64,000 bases of DNA from contig JAPETS010000017.1 of the NCBI GenBank assembly GCA_026023565.1, forward strand, positions 124,001 to 188,000. Reading direction: 5' to 3'. Within the stretch, counting starts at the first letter, position 1. The number at the start of each line of letters is the position of its first letter. This document shows positions 1 to 64,000 of this stretch, one piece after another. Position numbers and translations under genes: made by a program. The notes under the pieces were generated by a model. That model was not told the origin of the DNA, searched no databases, and worked only from the letters and a program-made list of their open reading frames with translations. Source of the DNA: Cirrosporium novae-zelandiae (Eukaryota).

Positions 1-2266
1 AGAAAGAGATACTGGTCCAATTCGGCTAAAAACATACCAACTCGGTCCAACAGTTCATGTTACGACCCAATCGCCCGTGGTCTCAGCGCTATGGCACCCT
101 CTAGGCGTCGATGGGAACGCATTTGTTACTGTGACTGCTGATGCAGCTGTTCGAATATGGGAACTCAGTAAGGGAAACCATTGGTCATTTGACAGCCCTA
201 ATATGGCTATTGATTTACAAAAGCTTGCGGATGCTATTTCGATGGAAGATGATGTAGCGCCGGAGGGGTATGGGAAGAACAAGGGATTCTCGGCAGATGT
301 ATTTGACATGGAAGTTGCATCAGCATGTTTCGGAGGTGCTGGTCTACCGCAAGAAAATGGGTGGAGTAGTATGACTCTCTGGGTTGGAATGAAAACTGGA
401 GATGTATACGCACTTTGTCCCCTACTCCCCTCTAAATGGCAGCCAACTACAACTACTTTGGCAACTCTTTCGGCGGAAGTAGTATCCAAAAACGCAATGG
501 TCCAGGAGGATCCATCTTCTGACGTCATGACCAGGAGGAAGTACGACCAACAATACCATTGGTTGTCAGCAATCGATGATGAGGATCCTCTATTTCTTCC
601 TGGCAGAACAGAATTTTCTTCTGAGGTTGGAGTTTACTCTCGACCAAACCAATCTGGACCGGTGCCAAAACTACAGGGCCCCTTTCAGATCAATAAGGGG
701 GCCTTTGAATACGATTCCGATATCACCGACATACACGTAATTGCTGCTAACCTTGATGACGAATTAATGGATAACCTACACAGTGAGGATGAACAACATG
801 AACTCTCAATCACGACTGTCTGCCTTCTTACAGTCGAAGGTACGGTTCACATATGCTTGGATCTTATAGGCGTTGAGGGAGAATGGCTTCCCCAGAAAAA
901 ATATCATTCCGATCAACCACTTGTCCCCCCGGAACTGCCAAGTCTTACCCTCGTTGAGTCATTAGAGACCCTGCCAGAATCCCATATGGACGAGTCTAGC
1001 TGGCCAATATTTACAGCCGATGTCCAAAGCCCCTATGCATTCTTCGTTACCCACAATGCTGGTGTATCTTATATATCTATATCCGACTGGGTTGCAAAGG
1101 TGGAAGCGGAACTGGATAGCATGGATGCAAGCGGTGCAGCCTTCCGCATGCAAATGCTCACCGAAGGTCACAAAGCCTCAAGGCAACAAATTATCGAATT
1201 TGATAGCGATTCAACATCCACGACCAAGACCTCTCCAGCAGGCTGTATTGTATTCCACGATTCGGGCCTAGGCTATTTTCTCCTGACAATGACTACGATA
1301 CGTCCCTTCGCCGTAACGCTAGACGCACCTGACTCCCAGCCCCCTCTAAACGACGACAATGAGGACTTTGGAAAAGTGACGGAAATACTGACTTCTGCCC
1401 CCCGGCGGCATCCCTTCGAACCACTGGAGTGCCTCTGGTCCGACACGGCTCTCACACAATTCTTGGCCACCTATGTCCCTACCCACCAACGCTCAACTAT
1501 ACACTCTGAAATTCGCCTTTCCCCCGCGACATTGGAAACCATGACCCTTGCGCACCGAGTTCTCAGCGCCGAAACCAATGTCATCGGTCTTGCAGCGGCT
1601 GACCTATTTGTCCGTTGTGAGCGTCTCCGTGATGAGTTCAAAGAACAAGTTCGGAGTGTAGGGGATGTAAGCACCAAAGTGGAAAGAATTGTGGACGAGG
1701 ATGCGGATGATTATGACGAGCGACCTTTGGAGGGTGGAAGGAGGGGAAATGAGGGTGTTGAGAGAAGAATTAGGGATGCGAAGGCCAGGCAAACGGAGTT
1801 GACGGAAAGGTACGATAGACTGAGGAGGAAAGTCGCAAGACTAGGAAGGAAGGAACTGAGCGAAAAAGAACTGAATTGGATGGGCGAAATTCGAGAAATG
1901 GAAAAATCTCTATTTCCACCAGAAGAACGGGAGGGGGCGGAGGATGACTACAACGAGGAGGGGATGGAAGTTTGGAGGAGGTTTGAAACTGTAAGCATAT
2001 CCTTGCTATTTGACTTTATTCCTATTATACTATATTATCCCTAACTCGTCTTATAGGTTCGTGGTCTCGCAGCCCAGCTTGTGGAAGAAGCCCAGTCAGC
2101 GGCCAACAATCAAAACGGCACACCAGAATCGGCCAGCAGTCACTTTGCCATCCCTCCAGAGATCCGCAAGGCTAATATGAACAAAGTGAAGTCTATGCTT
2201 GAGAGAGAGTCGGCCCTTGTTGATGCTGCGACGGCAAGGTTAGAACGGCTGAACCTCTCGTTATAA
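1..2266 (+). CDS. NUP82: Nucleoporin Nup82-like (5' end outside the window); intron 1991-2056
   Basis: Frame is open from base 2 (…IRLKTYQLGPTVHVTTQSPVVSALWHPLG…). Beta-propeller-like N-terminal part (WHP, 'YALCPLLP') is followed by a C-terminal coiled coil. GTAAGC…CTAAC…TAG intron joins in frame to the 2057-2266 exon. Confidence 0.8.
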
Positions 2267-3503: not shown

Positions 3504-4242
3504 GCGCTTTTCTTTAACAAAAAAAAACCATAACCTGGTTTTTCGCATTTGGATAGCTTCTTAAAATGCTCCACCTTGTACGATTTTCCCCATTAACGTC
3601 CATAAAATTCGCATCATGCGTACCTTCGGTTCAGCGGGCGGCGTCGGGAAAAAAATCTTCACTCTGTGGCTCATGATGCTATTATTGATAGCCATTGGGC
3701 TCATGGTTTAGCTGGGAGGGTTGGGATTGTACTTGTATATATAGTTACGCTAGACTTGTTTTTTACGGTGCTGCAATGCTGCTGGCATGAAGGAGGTTTT
3801 AGAGGACTATGAGATGAATTTTAGGGCTCTAGGCTTTATAATAATCCATGATTATTGAGGAATTAAGTCGAGTTTTCCAAGAACTTGGTCCACCATTCAA
3901 TGGTCAGCGAGCCAATCTATAAGTGCTCAGGGCAATAAGTTTTCAACTTGGTTGTCCACCCTATTCAGCTGCTCCCTGCTGTATAAGAATGTAGGTATGG
4001 TTGGATACACACTACTAGGAAGAAGTTGCTCGTCATGGTTGTTTAGTTGATAGTGGCTGCTGATCTTCAGTCCTTAGGCGCGCTAACGGCACTTTTATTT
4101 TTCTACTCCGACATCATTCTTTGAGAATTACATTTTGACCCATGATTGAATATTCCACAACGGGTAATCAGAAATCTCTTCTCACTAGGCTCCAACTCTT
4201 CGGGTACTTTTTTAATCCATATTATGGACCAGGTCTTTACAA

Positions 4243-30751: not shown

Positions 30752-31851
30752 TCACACAAACTCCACCTCCCCCCCAACAGCATTCTCTCTCGCCCAATTC
30801 CACACACCATCCATATCGCGACACGATTTCGTAACGGGCAGCTGGGGGAGAGGCTTTTTAGCAACGGGGTCGGATTGCCAGGAGATGGGGGTTATGTCGG
30901 CGTTGCAGAGGAGGGATTGACGGAGCCAGTCTAGGCAGTGGTCTTTTTTTTGTGTTAGTAGTAAGAGGAGGAGAGAGAGGTATTTGCTACCAAAAAAAAA
31001 AAAAAAAAAAACATACCAATATGTTGAGCATCCTTCCCCCCAAAATTCCTCGTTGTCCCGTCACCAAAAAAGTAATCGGTGAACTCGCTTCGATACCGCG
31101 GCACCTCGGGGACATACAAAGCCTTTCTGATAAGATCGACGCAGTGGATCTGGTGGAACACCTCGAGCTGGATGAGGTATTGATCCGGGTGGTCGGGGAC
31201 GGTGAGGGTTTTGCTTTGGAGCTTGGAGGCTTGGGTGAAGGAGATTTGGCTGTGCATGCTTTCTGTGATGGGGGGAGGGGTTTGTTGGTTTGATTTATTG
31301 TGGGAGATTAAAAGGGGGGAGGGGGTAGAAGATAGAGTGGAGAGATCAGGAAAAGAAAAAGGGGATTATGATTATGGCTATGGACTAACCGTTATAAAGC
31401 TCGTTCCATGCGGCGTCAGTTTCGATATCGGGAAGGCCATCAACCCCTTTCGCCATATAGGCTGTGCGGACATGGATCGAATCCTCTTGCACTTTGGTAT
31501 GGTACTCGATGATATCTTGAACCGGCGCTGAAGTAGCCATCCATTAATTTTTTGTCAGAAGGAAGGGGGGGCTCCTAAGTCTCAATCCCACGAAAAGCCT
31601 AAAGGTGAGTAGCACTTACAATATATTTGTGTATTCACGTTCGTGCAATTTCGTAGTTTATGGAGAGCAATGGTTGCCAGCATGGCCAGTATGGAGATGG
31701 ATGAAATTAAGGAGAGGATGGAGATGGCATGTTTGTATAAGAAGGCGCGGAAACCGCGGTTTGCGGGGTGGTGGTGGGTTTGCCATGCCACATCCGCGTC
31801 GCCTTCTTTCAGGAGATGATATGTTTCCACGTCTTGAAGATTTTCTGACAT
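30752..31851 (-). CDS. DUF3328 / UstYa-family oxidase (fungal RiPP tailoring enzyme), membrane-anchored; exons 31851-31620, 31527-31390, 31262-31017, 30942-30752
   Basis: Spliced product has an N-terminal TM helix, IYSPVQDIIEY, TDAAWNELY, LEVFHQIHCVDLIRK, HIDHCLDWLRQSLLCNADITP and CRDMDGVWNWARE. These are the family hallmarks, including two HXXHC motifs. All three introns are GT-AG and phase-consistent. Confidence 0.93.
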
Positions 31852-33735
31852 ATTGGAAAGCGAATGAAGATGGGATCTGAAAAAAAAGGGAGTTTTCAAA
31901 AGGAGTTTCAATAGAAAATGGGAACAGAAAAAGTTGGGGATTCAAAATTCTCAAAGCTGGGGGATATCTATTCATCAGAATTTCCCCGCAACTACGGACA
32001 ACAAGTTCGACGGAATCACAACTTGCTCTAGATCGTTTGGCTTCGTTTGCTGACGTGGTTTCCCCGAGCAAGTGGCGGCATGAGGTAGGATTGGAAATAC
32101 CACTTCGTGTTGATTCAGTTTAGTGACCTGTCCGCATCTTTTATCCATTATCACACAGATCGAGATCAGCATAATATGCCAACTTCCCATTTTGGTTGAT
32201 ATATCCCGTTGAAGGTGGCGACATTGCGGACACGGGTGAAATACGAGCATCATTGGGTGTTTCTGGCACACACCAGATGCACATCACAGAAAGCAGAGTC
32301 ATTAAGACACGACGACAATGGCTGAGGAGAGCATCGGAACCGAATAGTCATACAAGAATGGGTTATGCTACATGAACACGGTAAACAGAAAGCTGTAGGC
32401 TAGAATTAGGGTTTCTGGTACCCTATGGTCCAATTAGTTAAGTCTGAAAGGTGCATGAAAGGACACTCGAATATCCTCGTGTTGCTATACTGTTATTAGG
32501 GCTTGTTAAAGCCATAGACATGATCGCCACGCAAACGAAAGAAATAAGCCTCGAGAAGCCGAGTTTGAGCTAATGCATCAAGGTTGGAATGTGGGGAATA
32601 ATATTGGAAGATCTTGACCGTCAGCAAATAGCATAGTGTGGGGTTCGTTGGTAGAGCTATGAAGCCATATCAGTAATAACTGCATCTGCTAAAGGGGGAC
32701 ATTATTATTTGGTATTAGTACATTTGACTTGAGTTCCTCGTGGACATACTGACAAACAGCAAAGAGACACACTCGTCTTGGTATGGTTTTCTTTCACTTT
32801 TAAATCACAAGTATTGATTTGAATAGATGATTGGGTGCAATATGAATCACGAAATGTACACATCGTGTTGCTGTAAACAATAGTATACTTGGAAACTTGC
32901 TTGCGGAAACAGCTATATAAAAGTCACAGGTTCGAGAATGTACCTAATCGATTAGAAATCTTGAAAATATTACACTATCTCCTAAGTCTAAGCTTATTTT
33001 ACAAAATTCTTGAGCTTAGCCTTATCTTACGTAAGACTTTTTGCAAAATGTGGCAAAACGTGATGTTTAGGTGGTCAGTGAGAAGATGGAGCTACTGCAG
33101 AACGCCGGATGTGATGGGATGAGAAGGGATGAGAGATATAGAGAATGATGTGATTGTCACAGAAAAGATCGACACTCTGAGAGGTGGGAGGATAGAGAAG
33201 AGAGGTACTAAAGGTTCTGTTCGAGTTAAAGACTCATCTCACATAAGCTCCTAATTGAAATATCACCTACTCTTAATACATTTCAACTATTCCTTTGTTT
33301 CAAACCCAAAGCTTGTGCATATGGATATACGTTATTTCAAGAAAATGGGCTTGAAATTCAAGCTCCTCCTGACAACCCTCTAAGGCGGCAAGGTCCTGGT
33401 AGGACGGGGTCAACATCACTTTGTCCACTAGTTATTTAGATCGAATGAACACAAGTCCACGGGATATTAAGATGTGGCCTGCAATTATGCCTCCACACGC
33501 TTCCAGCTTAGGTGTCATAGAGCATCGAGGGTGAAAGACGTTTTGATGATGCGTCTTCCCAGTGACATGAGCGGCGGACAGTATGGATTTTCGTGGTGTA
33601 TTGTGGCTGCCTCTAACGCCCGAGCTTTCATATTTGTGTGATAATTGGTGCACATGCAGAGTTTCAATGCCCCTTCTCAAAGACTGTTGGTATGTGAAGA
33701 AGAGATGGACGTTGTGCTATGAGGAAGGCAAATTC

Positions 33736-33742
33736 TATAAGT
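33736..33742 (+). promoter_or_regulatory. Putative TATA element of the repeat-precursor gene
   Basis: TATAAGT about 115 bp upstream of ATG 33851; supported by position only. Confidence 0.4.
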
Positions 33743-33850
33743 AGGGGAGTGTCTGCCTCGATATCTGCAAAATAGGCATATAATCCTTCCAAGGACTTTT
33801 GAAGAACCAAGTTCTATAACTTATCTTGTCAGCCTAATTTCACAATCACT

Positions 33851-34742
33851 ATGAAGTCAACAGTCTTCGTTGTCCTTGCCTCTGCCCTTATCCAAGGCAT
33901 AGTCCTTGCAGCTCCCACTCCGTAAGTGGCCTATACATTACCATGAGTTCAGCTCTGACAAGTTTGAAATAGTTCACCATGGGAAACCAATGTTGAGAAG
34001 TAAGATATACCCAGTGCTTCCTAATAGCCAAGACATTAACATAAATATAGCGAGAAGCGGTCCCCAGAGGCAGAAGCGGTAGCAGAAGCAGAGCCGTAAG
34101 TAGTATTACATGTTGTTCGTAGTTAAGGCTAAGATTTCTGGAAGTGTTCCATGGGATACTACTCTTGACAAAAAGTGGGACACTACCCTTGACAAGAAGT
34201 GGGACACAACCCTCGACAAGAAATGGGACACAACTCTTGACAAGAAATGGGACACTACCCTTGACAAGAAGTGGGATACGACCCTTGACAAGCGATCACC
34301 ATGGGACACTGCAATCGATAAACGTGCTCCATGGGAAACTAATGTGGACAAGCGTTGGGAGACTAGTGTTGACAAGCGTAGCCCATGGGAAACAAATATC
34401 GACAAACGTTGGGAGACCGATCTTGATAGGCGTGTCCCATGGGATACTAGCCTCCACCGACGTGCTCCATGGGAGACTGATCTTGGTAAGCGTGAACCAT
34501 GGGAAACCGACCTCAGCAAGCGCTGGGAAACCAATGTCGATAAACGTGCCCCGTGGGAGACTAATGTCGATAAACGCTGGGAGACGAGTGTGGACAAACG
34601 TGCTCCATGGGAAACCGATATTGATAAGCGTTGGGAAACAAGTGTGGACAAGCGGGCTCCATGGGAAACCACCATTGATGAAAAGCGCTGGGTTACCTCT
34701 CTCGACAAGAAATCTCCATGGGAAACCGAACTTGAAGGGTAA
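33851..34742 (+). CDS. Secreted Kex2-processed repeat protein (KEP), candidate RiPP precursor with 23 W-[DE]-T-x-[LIV]-[DE]-type cores; exons 33851-33921, 33973-33999, 34051-34095, 34145-34742 (246 aa)
   Basis: Spliced sequence: MKSTVFVVLASALIQGIVLA-APTPSP-WETNVENE-KR-SPEAEAVAEAEPVP-WDTTLD-KK… . It has a signal peptide, three phase-2 GTAAG introns, and 22 more cores separated by KR/KK/RR. Confidence 0.92.
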
Positions 34743-56500: not shown

Positions 56501-59206
56501 GTGCACTCTCCTTCCATTGAAATCTATAATACAGAGCACCACTGCATAAGCTTCGTCGACAACGTCTAATTAACTCCGACACGGATAGGATATTGACACA
56601 ATTCAGTACTCAAATTGACCAACTCCCATTCATTCAAAGCCCATATGTCAAATTCATCAAAAGACATTAATTATGTGCACCATTTTGTCAAGGGATAAGC
56701 TAACCCTAGACCAAAAAGGAACATGCAAGTTTCCATCACGCCTATGCAACGATAGCAGAGACCCATATAACCAGCTGCATATAACTTCCGAACGGCTATC
56801 TATCTAAGAGACTCATGTTATATATACATAGCCCCCATTACCCCCCCCCTATATATCGAATGGCGCAGGGTGTGAAGAGACATAGACCCTACACGGTGAC
56901 CGGGTTGGTACCCATCGGTTTACCACCTATATATACCGTTTCACACCACACCATTACAATAGATTTCATCCTAGAGACTCCCAGGAGATTATATTTTCGA
57001 CACTTTCGTTGACATAGTGACTGATAAATATTCGGAACGAGAGTTTCTTTGATCCTCAACATATTTAATTAAAGGAGGAGACACTCGACCTTGGAATGCT
57101 AGCCTAGGGGCGATGATTATAGAAAAATAATCAATAAGCTGCAAAATACTGTACATGAAATACCTGCCCACAGTGGGTGGCATGCATATCTACTAGGTTT
57201 TTTTTGGCCCTCGCCGCTTTCGAATAGCCAGTGACCGTAAAAAATGATAGATTGCCACGCGCACAAAGCTGTTTATCAATTATAAGCTCGAGGCTCGCTC
57301 GTCGTCTGGCACCTTTACGATAATAACCACACGTTTATATGAACCAAAAAAAAATCACCAATGCCAAACTTAGATCTTACCTCACCTTGTCTTACTTTTT
57401 AGTTAGTTAGATGCCCCCTTTGCAGAAGTTAGCTGTATTCATTATCTATTATAAATACTTTCCATTCTTTTTAATACTAAACCGACCATAAAAAAAAAAA
57501 CTGTATTTTCTAGGAAGGGTAAACTGGTAGTAGTAGCTAGAGAGATGGTGAATTGTCGTTATAAAGAATATGCGGGTTTTATTTGAAGAATGGTTGGCAT
57601 AATCTTCTGTAGGGCCTCAAAGCCATAATCTTCTATCGCTAGCCAATAATTTAATATTTCGCTGAGCTTGCTTGCATGCTGTTACGCCATAGCTTTGCCT
57701 CGATCAGGTCGTCCATGCACAACAATCGGAAGCACGAATACATTGATACCTTTAATACGGAGGAGCCACCGACGTTTTGATTTGTTCAGCAAATGTCGGT
57801 AATTACGGCCTAGATTTCCGAGGATTATCAAGACCATTAACTAGTTTATTTATCAGCGTCTGTAAGATTGAAGTATATCATTCTTGAGGAAGTGCATAAA
57901 CTCCTTATTAGACTAAAAATTCGGTGATCAAATTGGCATATTTAGCTCATTAGCTATAGAGGAAGAGAAGGTTCAAAGTGATTGCCTTCAATTCGCTAGT
58001 TGAGAAATGAAAAGGATTTCTCCTCTCAAGCGAATGAAAGAGACTGCTAAAAGTAGTTAATTAAATCGAGACTGTACCTGGCATGGCTATGTAGGAAGTT
58101 GGCGATAACCTGGTTATTTTCCAGTGGACGACCACGGTCCGTAAAGTTATAGTGGAGCTTCTAGTTGCAGGTTCCGCCGCTCGAGCTCCCGTGGGCGGGC
58201 TCCGGCCCAATGTCTATTTACTCTAGCTGCTAGTAAAACCAGAGTATAAACTTCGACGCTCAAACCACATCTTACCACAGGTTAGAAAATGGCTATTCAC
58301 CCTCACTGTAACCCATCTACGTATGCGCAATCTCTTTAGGCATAGTGTACTCCTCGAATCTCAAAGGGGAGGGAGGGATCTTAGGATTGAAATTGATGGC
58401 CCGTATTTGTATTTGCGCTAGCATTTACAAATAGCCACTCTTCGGTAATCGGAACATTCCTGCTGTGACTTACTTTTTGGCAAAAGTGAAACAGCTTTAT
58501 TGGTCCAGCAACGCGCCGCTGTGGCCCGATTCTTGCGATTCTGGTCTGAGAGTATGGAAACTTGAATGAAAATCCTCTAAGAGATGGATGCGACCGACCA
58601 TGTATGGAATTAAGCGAAAGGTAACGAGAGGGTCCTCGATAGGGAAAAGGATGATTGGTGAGGAAATCGGCAAAAACGATAAGGAGATGGCCGGCCAGGA
58701 TAATTCCTGTATATTTCCTGTCCAATGGGAGGGACATTGACTAGTAGGCTGGCGAAAAATGAAGGAGCCCAGTGCGGAGATTGTACAGATGGAAAAAGAG
58801 GCTCCGAAGAGGGATTCCCTTCTTGTTGTTGGACTGCAAATCGTCGGGTGATTGTGGCGTAGCAGATAAGCTTATATTTTCTATTACTAACCCTTGCTGG
58901 TAGCCAGGGCCGCAAGCTAGCGAGACTTCCGCGCCTGTCAGATGAACCCTGATACTGGAAAAGGCTAAATCTAGGAGAAATCGGTGTAACACTCTTGGGC
59001 TCCTAGATGATAACACTGACCCACTGTGGCTCCAACACGTTATACTCATCTGATATAGGTATCGTCGGTGTAGAGGTGGTCTAACATAGTTAGACCATGT
59101 TTTCCATAATTCGTAATTCCTGACCAGAGAATAGTAGACAAAGTATTTTCGTTCTTCGTGCTTTTCATTGTTATTCAACATCACCATTATTATCATCGTC
59201 ATCATT

Positions 59207-60124
59207 ATGCCGTCAATCCAAAGGGCTTTTGCAGATTCCTCCCTAGGTGAAGTTCATTATCGATATCTCCTAACCGACAATGAGCCGAAGAAACGTCCGA
59301 TTGTCTTTCTGCACACGTCCGCCTCGTCCTCCGCAAACTGTGAGAAAATGATGAAAATGTTTGCGCCTCTGGGTCATGATTGCTACGCTCCCGACATGCC
59401 AGGATTTGGGGAGTCGTTCGACCCGGCGGAAGACCCCGTCAACATAGCCTGGTATGTACATGTATACGCAGAGGTGTTTCAGGATATCGGATTCTTCGAC
59501 GACGGCTTCCATATTGTTGGATACCATGCTGGAGCTTCCATCGCGATCGAGATGGAGACACTGTATATGAACGTGATTCGAAGTATATGTATGATTGGGC
59601 CAATAATCATGTTGGATCGGGAGCGGGCAATGATGAGGAAGGATTTTCAGAGCGTATTCAACAAGCCTATACTAGACGGGTCCGGTTTGACCAAGGCATG
59701 GAAATATCTGGCGGAGCTTGGCGTGGGGGACAATGTCGAGTCCAAACACAGAGAAGCTCTTAATCATACAAGAGCATGGAAGGGAAGATACCAGATATAT
59801 AACGCCGTGTTGAATCAGGACTCGGAAGCTGTGTTCGTCCAAGTCAGTTGTCCGGTAATGGCATTGCGTGCACGGGATGACATTTTATGGCCATACTTTG
59901 ACAACGTGCAAAAGATCAGACCAGGAACCAGGGTCGAGGAGATTAAAGGTGCAGATTTCGAACCAGATAGGGATGCGGAGGGAATCTATGAAGAGTATAC
60001 AGACTTTCTGCGGTCAGTGGAGAAATGGGACACCAAGCATGGGATCTCTGTTGAATTCGGCGAGAAAGAGCTTGAAAAGAGAGCTGAACTTGTTTGCATG
60101 CTTTGGAAAGCACAGGCTTGCTAA
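59207..60124 (+). CDS. Alpha/beta hydrolase-fold protein with a non-canonical nucleophile elbow; intronless
   Basis: IVFLHTSASSS, YAPDMPGFGES, FHIVGYHAGASIA, VSCPVMAL. Confidence 0.85.
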   Translation: MPSIQRAFADSSLGEVHYRYLLTDNEPKKRPIVFLHTSASSSANCEKMMKMFAPLGHDCYAPDMPGFGESFDPAEDPVNIAWYVHVYAEVFQDIGFFDDGFHIVGYHAGASIAIEMETLYMNVIRSICMIGPIIMLDRERAMMRKDFQSVFNKPILDGSGLTKAWKYLAELGVGDNVESKHREALNHTRAWKGRYQIYNAVLNQDSEAVFVQVSCPVMALRARDDILWPYFDNVQKIRPGTRVEEIKGADFEPDRDAEGIYEEYTDFLRSVEKWDTKHGISVEFGEKELEKRAELVCMLWKAQAC

Positions 60125-61354
60125 AATGTTGATTTCATGTGAAAACAAAGGAGCAAAAGGCGTAACTCATGGGTGGCATTGTCGATGGAGTTAGTGGGTT
60201 ATGGTTTGATATGGAATAGATGTATATAGAGGTCATAATGATTCACGATAGAGGGTTAGATTAATCCGAGATATATCTCCAAATCTATCTTCTCCCTTAT
60301 TTCAAGATATATTTGCTTGGGATTGTCAGTAATTGATGAAGAAGGAATAATATAATGAGTTGATGAAGACTTGAGTCAACGGCGGAATGGGATATTCGCT
60401 CGGAAAAATCATGTTTGCTTGGTTTGCAGAGTGCTTTACTAGGAAATTGAGGCGTGGGGGTAGCGCAGGTATATTCCTCCGTCCAATGCCATCATGTATC
60501 GGAAGCTATGCTAGCTCCCGAAATCATGTGATGAAGAACAAACATAACAAACATCATTACAACACACAACACTACCAATTGTCATGGTTGCAACTATTCC
60601 CAATTTATATATCCACCTTTGTTCCCTCTTCTAGGTGACGGTTCAATAGTATTCCAAACTCTAGCGATGTTTCTAGGAGTTCTAGTGACGATTTAAACGA
60701 CGAGAATCTCTCTTTGGGCGATAATATAAATGATATGGAACAGCTTGATAACGGCTGCGACGAAGAGACTAACGAAAATGAATCAATTGGGACTGCTTCA
60801 GACTTTGGATAGATCAGATGTTGGTTTTTAAACTAAGAGTTTTCTGTCTTTCGTGTATTATTTTTTGCTTCAAACCTATTAGTATTAATTTAAGCCTTTG
60901 ATTTCTATAAATTCATCTTCAATTCCCACCCCCTATTGTTCATCCTGGCCTTCTGATACCCCAAGGCATATTCCAAACAGCGACGTCTTAGCGTCTTAGC
61001 AATAGTCTGGGAGCTCAGAGGTACATAAAATCGTTCTACAATTGGGAAATAGACTGAATGTAAGTGGGTGTTCTTCTTTTTGCTTGTTGCTATAGCTAAT
61101 TTGAGCTGCAAGGTTTTGCAGGTGTTTAGTTTGTCCGATCGGGTTGATATTTCGACCGCAGCGACCATTGTCGGTACTCCAACATCATGATTTACCTTGA
61201 AGAATCAGACAACATGTGAAGTCTTTGTGGTTATCATTATGATTTAATGTGAAATGTATTTGTAATCAGTAGCTCGATTGCAAGTATATAGTGAGGGCAC
61301 ATCTACCATTTCATAACTCAGAAGTTCTTCTATATCCAATACCAAATACCAAGT

Positions 61355-62368
61355 ATGACCAACAAAACAGTCCTCGTCACCGGTGCCAATGGCTACCTTG
61401 GCCGCGCAGTCTGTCACATCTTCTCCCTTTCAGGATGGACCGTTTACGGTCTGGTGCGCAGTCAGGAAAAGGCGACAGGCCTTGCTCTGGACGAAATCAC
61501 TCCCATCATCGGCTCATCAAGCGATTTGTCTTTCCTGTCCGACAAACTTCAAGACACTGTCTTCGATGTGATTGTGTCTACGACTGAGGATCTAGGAAAT
61601 TACACCCCGCATTTCGAGTCTATCTTGGAGTTGGTCAAAGCCGTTTCTGGGACGGCAAAGAAGCATGGGAAGAAACCGCTCTTACTCTTCACATCTGGGT
61701 CTAAGGATACCGGTGAATCTGGCCTCGAAGGTTCTCCAGACTTCGTCGTTCATGATGAAACTACACCTGATAATAATCAGGTCAAGATCATTGCCCCCCG
61801 TACCGAGAATGCACCTCGTGTCTTCAATTACCAGGATCAGTTCCATGGTGTCGTGATCCGGCCTACTCCCCTCTATGGACACAGCGGTTCATTTTATGGA
61901 CAACTTTTCCATTCTTTCACAACTAATCAGCCTGGCCAAAGTATTGTTATATACGGCGACCCGAAAACGGTCTGGCATGGGGTTCATGTCGACGACTGCG
62001 CTAGGGCATATGAGTTGCTCGCTAGTCAGTTCTACCAGTGTTCTGAGAAGGTGCATGGACAAATTTTCCTTATAGGCAATGAGAAATGGGATACAGTGGG
62101 TGATATAGTGGAGGGGCTTCGGAAGGTGTACGGGGAACGGAAGGTCGAGTGGATGACACCTGATCCAAACAATCAATTTCAGACTCTCATGGCGCATTCA
62201 CAGGCAATTTGCGCAGACAAGATGAGAGCCTTGGGTTGGACGACGAAGAAACCTGCACTCGTTGATTCGATTGACGTGTATGTAGCAGCTTGGGAGGAGG
62301 CAATGAGGATGGAAGATGCAAGGGCCAAAAAAATGTTGGAGATGGTGAATCTGGTGCTCAAAGAATGA
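61355..62368 (+). CDS. NAD(P)-dependent epimerase/dehydratase (atypical/extended SDR); intronless
   Basis: Rossmann motif VLVTGANGYLG, WTVYGLVRS, VIRPTPLYG, VHVDDCARAY. Confidence 0.9.
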   Translation: MTNKTVLVTGANGYLGRAVCHIFSLSGWTVYGLVRSQEKATGLALDEITPIIGSSSDLSFLSDKLQDTVFDVIVSTTEDLGNYTPHFESILELVKAVSGTAKKHGKKPLLLFTSGSKDTGESGLEGSPDFVVHDETTPDNNQVKIIAPRTENAPRVFNYQDQFHGVVIRPTPLYGHSGSFYGQLFHSFTTNQPGQSIVIYGDPKTVWHGVHVDDCARAYELLASQFYQCSEKVHGQIFLIGNEKWDTVGDIVEGLRKVYGERKVEWMTPDPNNQFQTLMAHSQAICADKMRALGWTTKKPALVDSIDVYVAAWEEAMRMEDARAKKMLEMVNLVLKE

Positions 62369-62969
62369 TTGAGGGGAAGTGTAATTCTCGATATTGGAGA
62401 GTATGATTTGGTTATTCTATAGCTAGCTTCCACTTGATGATGATACATATGTCGAGGTAGATAAATCATAGTAGCTGAACACCACGAGTACGCATTGCTT
62501 GAGGTCAGAAATTATCAATCGTAAATTGTTCTTCCTCATCGTGCACCATGCTACTTCTCATATCGTAATGAGTGCTGAAACAAAACAGAGTAAAGGGAAA
62601 GGAAGCTCTCTATGTTAGCGTTGAAATGATGCCATGGCAAAAGGCATTTTGCAATCACAGCAGTATAGAGAAGTGTTATACTAAGATGCTAATGGAAACA
62701 ATAATTGGAGAGTTTATTAAACATTCTACTCTTATAGATGGTACTGGTTTACTATGGTCAAGGATGAGGAAAGCTTGAAATTAGATAAGATATGCTATCC
62801 ACTAATGTATTTAAGCCAAACCACATCTCCCAAGTCCAACGTTTCATTATCACAAATAACTCGGTATTTATGAAACAAAATGATGCTTATGGTCCTTGGC
62901 AAAAGTTTTATATACTCGGAAATCACTGGTATATTCGTATATCAAGTTACAGCTTAATGCTTTAATCTA

Positions 62970-64000
62970 ATGGCTGAATTACAAAAATCGTCAACAGCCA
63001 CCTTTCGGATGTTGCAATCCAACCCCGAACCAGAGGAACCACCGCGCCCAGTAAAACGCGCGAGAGTTACCTTAGCATGCCAGAGGTGCAAGGCAAGGAA
63101 GCAGAAGGTTGGCTCTAAGTCCTGATATTTGGGTTGTCAGTCGTTCGATGCTCTATGGGAGCTTTATGGAAACTCTGCTGACGACTTCTGTTTACAGTGT
63201 GATGGTGCCCATCCAGCTTGCTCAAAATGCAAGGCCCACAAGCTGCCCTGCAAATATATCATACCTAATAAACCAATGCCATTTGGGAAAAATCATTACA
63301 TCAAAGCCCTTGAGAATAAAATTGCTGAATTAAAAAGCTACATTAGAGAAAATTCATTACAATTACAATCGAGTCAGGACGACGTACAGGATGTGCAGAA
63401 CTCTCCCCATTGTCCTTCTGCTTTACAAGATAGCAATCCCCATAGCCCAGAAACAGAAACCTGGCAACCCCAGGAGGAAAATACAACCAATATAACAGAA
63501 GATACTTATGCTTCGGAAAATGATGATAATGAAACCTTTGGATCGCAAAAGGGATTAGATTCCATGGTTGACGTGCTCAGAGATTTGTCGCTAGATGCAA
63601 ATGGCGGTTATATTGGCGCGTCATCTCATGTGAACATAGGGAAACTGATTAGCTCTATAATCAATTCCGGGCGGAGTAAAGACCTTACTGGAAACAGTCA
63701 TGTTCAAGACTCTAGGAACGTTCGTCTACCAACATTGAGTTTAGGAATAGGACAGGAGTGTGAAAGCTTTGGATTCTCAGACGTTCCAGCAGATGTCGCA
63801 GATCGGCTGGTTATTGAATATATGAAACATATTTCCCACCGATGGCCAATCCTTCAGTCTTCGTGGATCCAGAAATTACATCTTAGACGAGACACAATCG
63901 ATAATGTGTTTGAAAAGAGTACCCTTCACCTCATCTATGCCATAGGAGGTTGGTGTCTAGAAACAACTGGGAAGGCCGGAGGATTCTATCCTGAGAAACA
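62970..64000 (+). CDS. Zn(II)2Cys6 fungal transcription factor (3' end outside the window); intron 63108-63197
   Basis: ACQRCKARKQK|CDGAHPACSKCKAHKLPC binuclear cluster, a YIKALENKIAEL dimerisation helix, then an open frame to the window end (GGYIGASS, RWPILQ). Confidence 0.92.

Follow-up and report, generated by a model that had tools for sequence, protein, structure and literature searches.

A stretch of 64,000 nucleotides from Cirrosporium novae-zelandiae (contig JAPETS010000017.1, positions 124,001 to 188,000) was analysed around a gene for a secreted-type peptide precursor and the UstYa/DUF3328 gene next to it. This whole stretch is called the window in the following, and coordinates refer to it unless a contig is named. 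The precursor gene occupies positions 33851-34742 of the forward strand in four exons, with GT..AG borders at each of the three introns, and codes after splicing for 246 amino acids with 23 core peptides. Exon 1 ends in phase 2 directly before GTAAGT. The interval 34145-34742, on which a sequence-only reading of the window had concentrated, corresponds to exon 4 including the stop codon. The product starts with a putative secretion signal, consisting of Met-Lys and about 18 hydrophobic or small residues, which is followed by Ala-Pro-Thr-Pro-Ser-Pro, the first core WETNVE(NE), Lys-Arg, a spacer of 14 residues and the 22 further cores; 22 dibasic sites (KK, KR or RR) were counted. Tyrosine and cysteine are absent over all 246 residues and the sole phenylalanine lies within the signal peptide, as expected from the earlier statement that the cores are free of Tyr, Phe and Cys.

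In divergent orientation to the precursor gene, with 1999 bp between the two start codons, lies a four-exon gene of the UstYa/DUF3328 family (30752-31851, reverse strand). Its PF11807 matches (Table 1) bear out the proposal of the sequence-only reading that such a gene is located near the precursor. The spliced product agrees letter for letter with a database protein of 268 amino acids (P0001), which one source labels as hypothetical protein of a metagenome-assembled C. novae-zelandiae (Xylobotryomycetes). In the AlphaFold2 model (mean predicted local distance difference test score 79.1) residues 34-68 form a membrane helix and both HxxHC motifs lie within helices; the His and Cys residues of the motifs were conserved in an alignment of 60 sequences. 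A Foldseek comparison of the model with the PDB yielded no match at E ≤ 1e-3. The architecture of one membrane helix and two HxxHC motifs is shared with CctR, a DUF3328 enzyme that was demonstrated to be a membrane-bound dimer with binuclear copper and to depend on oxygen (PMC12435403).

Relatives of the precursor were sought with a word-indexed search among the proteins of 108-347 amino acids in a collection of 5.8 billion, and none was found at E ≤ 1e-3. The one match at E ≤ 10, a Hepatocystis kinase (E 4.9), was attributed to chance, and a search of the ESM Atlas returned only a bacterial cluster with a score of 0.76, which is not meaningful. The window's own precursor is missing from the 5.8-billion collection while the adjoining UstYa protein is present there with 100% identity, so that the precursor has probably not been annotated publicly.

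Table 1. Exons of the precursor and UstYa genes and the region between them, in window coordinates
Feature	Position	Strand	Evidence
Precursor exon 1: start codon, predicted hydrophobic signal peptide, Ala-Pro-Thr-Pro	33851..33921	+	gene model, splice sites; signal peptide predicted from sequence
Precursor exon 2: Ser-Pro and first core WETNVE(NE)	33973..33999	+	gene model
Precursor exon 3: Lys-Arg site and most of the 14-residue spacer (seven X-Ala/X-Pro dipeptides; ends in exon 4)	34051..34095	+	
Precursor exon 4: 22 cores W-[D/E/V]-T-x-[L/I/V]-x, with KK/KR/RR between them and in some spacers a single X-Pro dipeptide; stop codon 34740-34742	34145..34742	+	
UstYa exon 1: disordered N-terminus and transmembrane helix	31620..31851	-	spliced product identical to P0001; AlphaFold2 helix 34-68
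UstYa exon 2	31390..31527	-	
UstYa exon 3: first HxxHC (HQIHC, 160-164) and first two residues of the second	31017..31262	-	PF11807, E 1.4e-9
UstYa exon 4: rest of second HxxHC (HIDHC, 204-208), conserved Cys218 and Cys246, stop codon	30752..30942	-	PF11807, E 6.1e-14
Divergent intergenic region, 1999 bp, presumed shared promoter region	31852..33850	.	distance

Core peptides and processing signals

Exon 4 codes for multi-copy cores (WDTTLD six times, WETNVD and WETSVD three times each) and for the single-copy cores WDTAID, WETNID, WETDLD, WDTSLH, WETDLG, WETDLS, WETDID, WETTID(E), WVTSLD and WETELE(G). This composition matches exactly the list of 22 cores in the sequence-only reading, and the exon 2 core reported there as WETNVENE was found as well. 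All 23 cores have Trp at position 1 and Thr at position 3. Position 2 is occupied by Glu (14), Asp (8) or Val (1) and position 6 by Asp in 18 of the 23 cores. Position 5 is always Leu (12), Val (7) or Ile (4), as had been claimed. Position 4 had been described as varying freely, which is overstated because only six residue types, all small or acidic, occur there (T7, N5, S5, D4, A1, E1). Calling this a combinatorial peptide library says no more than that the cores vary as they usually do in multi-core precursors.

At the nucleotide level, Thr3 is encoded by ACT (9), ACC (8), ACA (4) and ACG (2), and the 253 unit pairs presented 182 synonymous and no non-synonymous codon differences at this position. 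Among the six WDTTLD-KK/KR units 43 pairwise codon differences were synonymous and 5 non-synonymous, the latter being without exception Lys/Arg exchanges in the last spacer. The synonymous-only variation of Thr3, the nearly synonymous-only variation of the WDTTLD units and the Tandem Repeats Finder scores of 205-235 for the precursor arrays characterize the repeat as more than a product of chance: the core repeat is under selection.

A whole number of X-Ala/X-Pro dipeptides separates each Trp from the preceding dibasic or signal site, in register for 23 of 23 cores; in the case of the first core the dipeptides were counted from an assumed signal-peptide cleavage after residue 20. Eleven cores have no dipeptide, ten have one (SP, AP, VP or EP), one has three (AP-TP-SP) and one is preceded by a ladder of seven (SP-EA-EA-VA-EA-EP-VP). 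These ladders, which make Trp the predicted free N-terminus, were absent from the sequence-only reading. The prediction of an N-terminal Trp after Kex2 cleavage and Ste13-type trimming rests on the observation that all 23 spacers consist of whole X-Ala/X-Pro dipeptides. A grammar of Kex2, Kex1 and Ste13 signals is known from α-factor (PMC6339444), and Ste13-type trimming of repeat proteins processed by Kex2 (KEPs) of this kind has been shown experimentally by peptidomics (PMC9769878). The precursor would enter the endoplasmic reticulum, Kex2 would cut after each KK, KR or RR, a Kex1-type carboxypeptidase would take off the basic residues and a Ste13-type dipeptidyl aminopeptidase would strip all X-Ala/X-Pro pairs. 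An acidic peptide of 6-8 residues with a free N-terminal Trp should thereby arise from each of the 23 units, in total 14 different sequences. The calculated [M+H]+ values of unmodified peptides are 750.3305 for WDTTLD, 763.3257 for WETNVD, 736.3148 for WETSVD and 720.3563 for WVTSLD.

Such a layout is encountered in α-type mating pheromone precursors: signal peptide, KR/KK sites and in-register X-Ala/X-Pro ladders are common to the window gene and to MF-alpha-type precursors and other KEPs with a Ste13 signature (PMC6339444). The Pfam search of the precursor, however, gave no match to MF_alpha or MF_alpha_N at E ≤ 1, only two families at chance level. Pheromones of Pezizomycotina follow the pattern Trp/Cys...Gly-Gln-Pro-Cys-Trp, which is missing from the acidic hexamers predicted here. 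Peptides of the α-factor type are unmodified, longer and almost never encoded beside a DUF3328 gene; 100% of 227 yeast α-factors and 98.6% of 216 other putative pheromones were reported without such a neighbour (PMC7329392), whereas the UstYa gene is the immediate neighbour in the window. A role as the α-type pheromone precursor of this ascomycete is thus highly improbable. The repeats may also be compared to a secreted structural protein or a source of surface peptides like the repellents from Rep1 of Ustilago maydis, a Kex2-processed repeat protein whose peptides are attached to the wall (PMC6339444, PMC9769878). But the units have only 6-8 residues, are strongly acidic and contain no hydrophobic stretches, Rep1 is stated to lack the Ste13 signature (PMC6339444) and the conserved UstYa partner would find no explanation, so that hardly any credence can be given to a structural function.

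Recurrence of the gene pair

Eighty metagenome loci with a UstYa alignment were kept and all were scanned in six frames for Trp-core repeats. Repeats of the window type were present on exactly one of the 80, the 9.3-kb contig L003 of a second fungus, on which the pairing recurs in the same divergent arrangement. The UstYa match (tblastn) starts at 3809 on the forward strand of this contig. A precursor gene of two exons (2120-2050 and 1999-1678, reverse strand) codes for 130 amino acids; its start codon, at 2120, is separated from the UstYa match by 1688 bp. The L003 product has the same layout of a predicted signal peptide followed by Ala-Pro-Thr-Pro, and exon 1 comprises in both genes 71 nt in the same phase, with the identical end ..GCT CCC ACT CC before GTAAG. 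Its ten cores are WEVAVD (five times), WDTAIA (twice), WETAVD, WDTAVD and WDTAVQ, and Trp is placed directly after KR, RR or KK, or after AP-TP. Position 3 is Thr in five and Val in five of the ten. Of the invariance claimed for Trp1 and Thr3, both parts stood for the window gene, but that of Thr3 did not extend to this relative. Taking both loci together, all 33 cores begin with Trp, and at position 3 they have Thr (28) or Val (5), in all cases a β-branched residue.

In a tblastx comparison of L003 with the window only the precursor and UstYa genes rose above noise; two matches outside them covered 11 and 20 residues. The Pfam search revealed on L003 a kinase fragment and none of the window's neighbours, hence the flanks are unrelated. 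The nucleotide sequences of the intergenic regions were compared by blastn of the window against L003, which gave coding matches only and no conserved promoter sequence. A shared promoter in the window can be no more than presumed, since nucleotide conservation with the L003 intergenic region is lacking. No open reading frame (ORF) of more than 94 amino acids lies wholly within the 1999 bp (ORFs there were not put through Pfam).

The UstYa family is large, with 2007 representatives at E ≤ 1e-3, of which only 9 reached E ≤ 1e-30. The nearest named relatives belong to Rutstroemia sp. (PQE20057.1 and PQE27045.1) and Clarireedia jacksonii (KAM3086575.1). Over residues 124-262 the identity to the window protein was 63% for contig L001, 60% for L003 and 54% for contig L005. 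In a maximum-likelihood tree of 25 rows the window protein, P0007, L001 and L003 formed a clade (ultrafast bootstrap 95, Shimodaira-Hasegawa-like approximate likelihood ratio test 84), sister to L005 and a Rutstroemia protein (97/86); the six rows together were supported with 97/95. The locus rows were assembled from tblastn segments and are approximate, and the tree comprises unnamed or 'hypothetical' relatives only. Among the contigs of the closest relatives two have more than 2 kb on both sides of the UstYa gene, L003 with the Trp-core precursor and L005 without one; the L001 contig is too short to judge. The module was thus found twice in different genomic contexts, and it follows the enzyme subclade as far as two cases show.

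The relatives gave two observations on gene structure. The third intron of the window UstYa gene (30943-31016) measures 74 nt, contains a stretch of about 19 T and divides the second HxxHC motif after His-Ile and before Asp-His-Cys; the UstYa genes of L001, L003 and L005 are interrupted at the same point. In the annotated Rutstroemia proteins P0002 and P0153 Asp-His-Cys is missing, apparently through an error of the gene model at this intron. On L005, a tyrosinase gene (632-1679, reverse strand, PF00264 in three exon ORFs) is located directly upstream of and divergent from the UstYa relative, which is the classical Tyr-type dikaritin arrangement in the sister subclade.

The recurrence bears on the possibility that the precursor is an α-factor-like KEP that releases unmodified, linear Trp-first hexapeptides as hormone-like or interspecies signals, with the UstYa enzyme acting elsewhere. 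The complete Kex2, Kex1 and Ste13 grammar, the very short units and the absence, from the window ORFs scanned, of additional genes for tailoring or export agree with such a function. Ste13 signatures have been reported absent from known dikaritin precursors and were proposed as a hormone mark (PMC6339444), and peptides from KEPs that are linear and carry few modifications have been observed in fungi (PMC9769878). In this case the gene would be an ordinary orphan KEP. However, precursor and UstYa gene keep their divergent arrangement in an unrelated context on L003, both UstYa proteins fall in one clade, and the window holds one UstYa gene and one KEP, a second copy of either being absent from it. 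A release of unmodified peptides is accordingly regarded as unlikely.

Dikaritin-type features and candidate tryptophan chemistry

By the sequence-level definition summarised in PMC12048977 the locus is a dikaritin locus, with a putative signal peptide, Kex2 repeats and an adjoining DUF3328 gene with two HxxHC motifs. Genes of the DUF3328 family are strongly enriched beside KEP genes (in 22% of 7878 KEPs, at a mean distance of 3.09 genes; PMC7329392). The features of the ustiloxin/phomopsin subtype are missing, as the precursor is devoid of Tyr and no PF00264 match was obtained among the 44 large ORFs of the window that were scanned. The locus probably represents a minimal two-gene module of a filamentous ascomycete for ribosomally made and post-translationally modified peptides of the dikaritin type with Tyr-free, Trp-first cores. 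A modified peptide with non-Tyr chemistry is a reasonable reading, because a Tyr-free multi-core precursor of the Kex2 type adjoins a UstYa gene and this pairing recurs in a second fungus.

Among the known systems, ustiloxins and phomopsins (UstA with UstYa/UstYb, PhomA with PhomY) share with the window the secreted multi-core precursor, the dibasic Kex2 sites, the adjoining DUF3328 genes with two HxxHC motifs and cores with an aromatic residue first and a β-branched residue at position 3, that is Y-x-I there and W-x-T/V here. The N-terminal Tyr at position 1 is cyclised to the internal Ile at position 3 in both compound classes (PMC7329392, PMC9233826). In contrast to them, the window has cores without Tyr, no tyrosinase among the ORFs scanned, one DUF3328 gene instead of 2 to 5, units of 8-10 instead of 13-14 residues, and X-Ala/X-Pro spacers, which are reported absent there (PMC6339444). 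Asperipin-2a is the product of a similarly minimal cluster (AprA with AprY), in which a single DUF3328 enzyme performs the macrocyclisation (PMC7329392); AprY is described as copper- and oxygen-dependent (PMC12435403). Its core is rich in Tyr and carries two Tyr-derived rings (PMC9233826), whereas Trp is the only aromatic residue of the window cores. Victorin (VicA) has likewise a Tyr-free dikaritin core and a ring between a terminal aromatic and an internal aliphatic residue, but there a C-terminal Phe is joined to an internal Leu, the product is chlorinated and the cluster contains more tailoring genes (PMC9233826), in contrast to the N-terminal Trp and the lack of further tailoring genes in the window.

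The oxidation of the cores would be performed, by analogy, by a lumenal binuclear-copper domain of the UstYa protein. The preferred chemistry would be an attack on the tertiary C-β-H of residue 3 (Thr in the window, Thr or Val on L003) with coupling to the Trp1 indole, for which N1, a ring carbon or an added oxygen may serve as the point of attachment. The resulting side-chain macrocycle from i to i+2 would correspond in position to the Tyr1-x-Ile3 ring of ustiloxins and phomopsins. Residue 3 is favoured since it is β-branched at both loci, Val replaces Thr on L003, and Trp1-x-Thr/Val3 parallels Tyr1-x-Ile3. A link through the Thr hydroxyl is unlikely because Val takes position 3 in half of the L003 cores; the alternation of Thr and Val agrees with an attack on C-β like that on Ile3 of ustiloxin. 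For the coupling of Trp to sp3 carbons a precedent exists in plants: BURP cyclases, binuclear copper enzymes, link the indole N or C to such carbons (PMC11253845, PMC12186524), and the metal site of CctR is said to resemble that of BURP cyclases (PMC12435403). The likeness to plant burpitides (lyciumin-type with a Trp-N-to-C link, stephanotic-acid/moroidin-type with a Trp-C-to-C-β link) is mechanistic only and concerns multi-core precursors and a four-His dicopper site; the protein families are unrelated, the kingdom is a different one and Trp is usually the C-terminal residue of the burpitide ring. No BURP domain (PF03181) was found among the window ORFs scanned. In its full form, with an unusual combination of pheromone-style Ste13 trimming and copper-dependent cross-linking of the Trp1 indole to C-β of Thr/Val3 by UstYa and about 14 acidic macrocyclic hexapeptides as products, the proposal is possible but tentative.

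With the same module and the same processing, the UstYa enzyme might instead hydroxylate, halogenate or dehydrogenate an aliphatic C-H of residue 3 or 5 in a linear peptide, or link Trp1 to residue 5. Members of the DUF3328 family have been described as hydroxylases (CctR), halogenases (ApnU), installers of dehydroamino acids and cyclases (PMC12435403), and residue 5 is a candidate target, being Val, Ile or Leu in 33 of 33 cores over both loci. A plain hydroxylation would, however, leave the requirement for a leading Trp unexplained. The placement of Trp at the exposed N-terminus in all 33 cores, two positions ahead of a β-branched residue, parallels Tyr1-x-Ile3 and argues for the cross-link at residue 3. 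These alternative reactions are rather doubtful.

Several points weigh against a cross-linked, dikaritin-type product. The Ste13 signature is reported absent from the precursors of ustiloxin, phomopsin and epichloecyclin and is interpreted there as pointing to unmodified, hormone-like peptides (PMC6339444). With only 8-10 residues, the repeat unit has no space for a recognition sequence of its own; known repeat units are 13-14-mers (ustiloxin) or 27-mers (GigA) (PMC10540207), and one study mined for repeats of at least 10 residues (PMC9632046). Neither a tyrosinase (PF00264) nor a methyltransferase, peptidase or dedicated transporter was detected among the 44 large ORFs. The UstYa relative on L005 (54% identity) has an adjoining tyrosinase and no Trp-core precursor within its 6.7 kb. 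The precursor family rests on two loci, as neither the 5.8-billion collection nor the ESM Atlas held a relative, and residue 5, aliphatic in all 33 cores, could be the real target instead of residue 3.

The absence of Tyr is not new by itself, since victorin exists and Tyr-free or Trp-containing KEPs with DUF3328 neighbours have already been counted in silico. Of 1758 KEPs with such a neighbour 34.4% lack Tyr and 20.5% contain Trp (PMC7329392), and the in-silico classes defined there by Umemura in 2020, including type P-3 with Trp and Pro, resemble the window in this respect. In the solved DUF3328 macrocycles of the literature surveyed the aromatic partner is Tyr, or Phe in victorin. No description was found in the open-access literature searched of a Trp-first hexapeptide core type, of a full Ste13 ladder in a DUF3328-linked precursor or of a DUF3328 product using Trp. 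The window core strings did not occur in three supplementary tables of PMC7329392, which is weak evidence because these tables appear to list accessions without sequences. Four-letter core fragments were absent from the supplements examined of PMC6339444 (2 files) and PMC7329392 (3 files), and the accessions adjoining the Rutstroemia UstYa genes were not in the tables of PMC7329392. A literature search with six exact core strings gave one match, to a single string, in a paper on an integrin tail motif (PMC2199943), which was discarded.

If the link between Trp1 and C-β of residue 3 were true, the product would be the first dikaritin built on Trp and would form a fungal parallel to the lyciumin- or stephanotic-acid-type burpitides of plants. 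Any action of a DUF3328 enzyme on Trp would extend the range of reactions known for this newly recognised family of binuclear copper enzymes and show a convergence with plant BURP cyclases. The locus is a good and compact, though unproven, candidate in which to look for Trp chemistry of DUF3328 enzymes. With two genes only and six-residue cores it offers a clean test case, in which the natural variation marks the fixed positions (Trp1, a β-branched residue 3, an aliphatic residue 5) and L003 offers a further set of natural alleles. The rule of thumb by which KEPs with a Ste13 signature are unmodified signals and DUF3328-linked KEPs are toxins is likewise blurred by this locus.

The other neighbours in the window are housekeeping genes, among them pyruvate dehydrogenase E1, Hat1, a ZIP transporter and a ubiquitin hydrolase. 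At the end of the window (59138-64000) an α/β-hydrolase, a gene of the NAD-dependent epimerase/dehydratase family and a fragment of a Zn2Cys6 regulator stand in a row, possibly the edge of an unrelated metabolic cluster. KEP-like repeat ORFs were observed on about 11 of the 80 UstYa loci, many of whose contigs measure only 1-2 kb. Another Tyr-free KEP is present on L041 (5788-6528, reverse strand) and on L056 (5788-6528, reverse strand), about 1.5 kb from the UstYa relative, and comprises six units spaced by KR, which have X-Pro spacers and Phe-Pro-Trp-Phe/Met at their centre. Unrelated KEP-like repeat ORFs lie on the UstYa-relative contigs L010, L017, L018/L031, L023, L055, L068 and L077; several of them have Trp just ahead of a dibasic site (for example ...AWWGKKR, ...TWFKR, ...AGWGKR), others have Tyr. 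The repeat ORF on the UstYa-relative contig L064 (about 3560-3977, reverse strand), with units of the form His-His-Lys-Gly-Lys-Gly...Gln-Gly, recalls the di-histidine KEP types described in PMC7329392.

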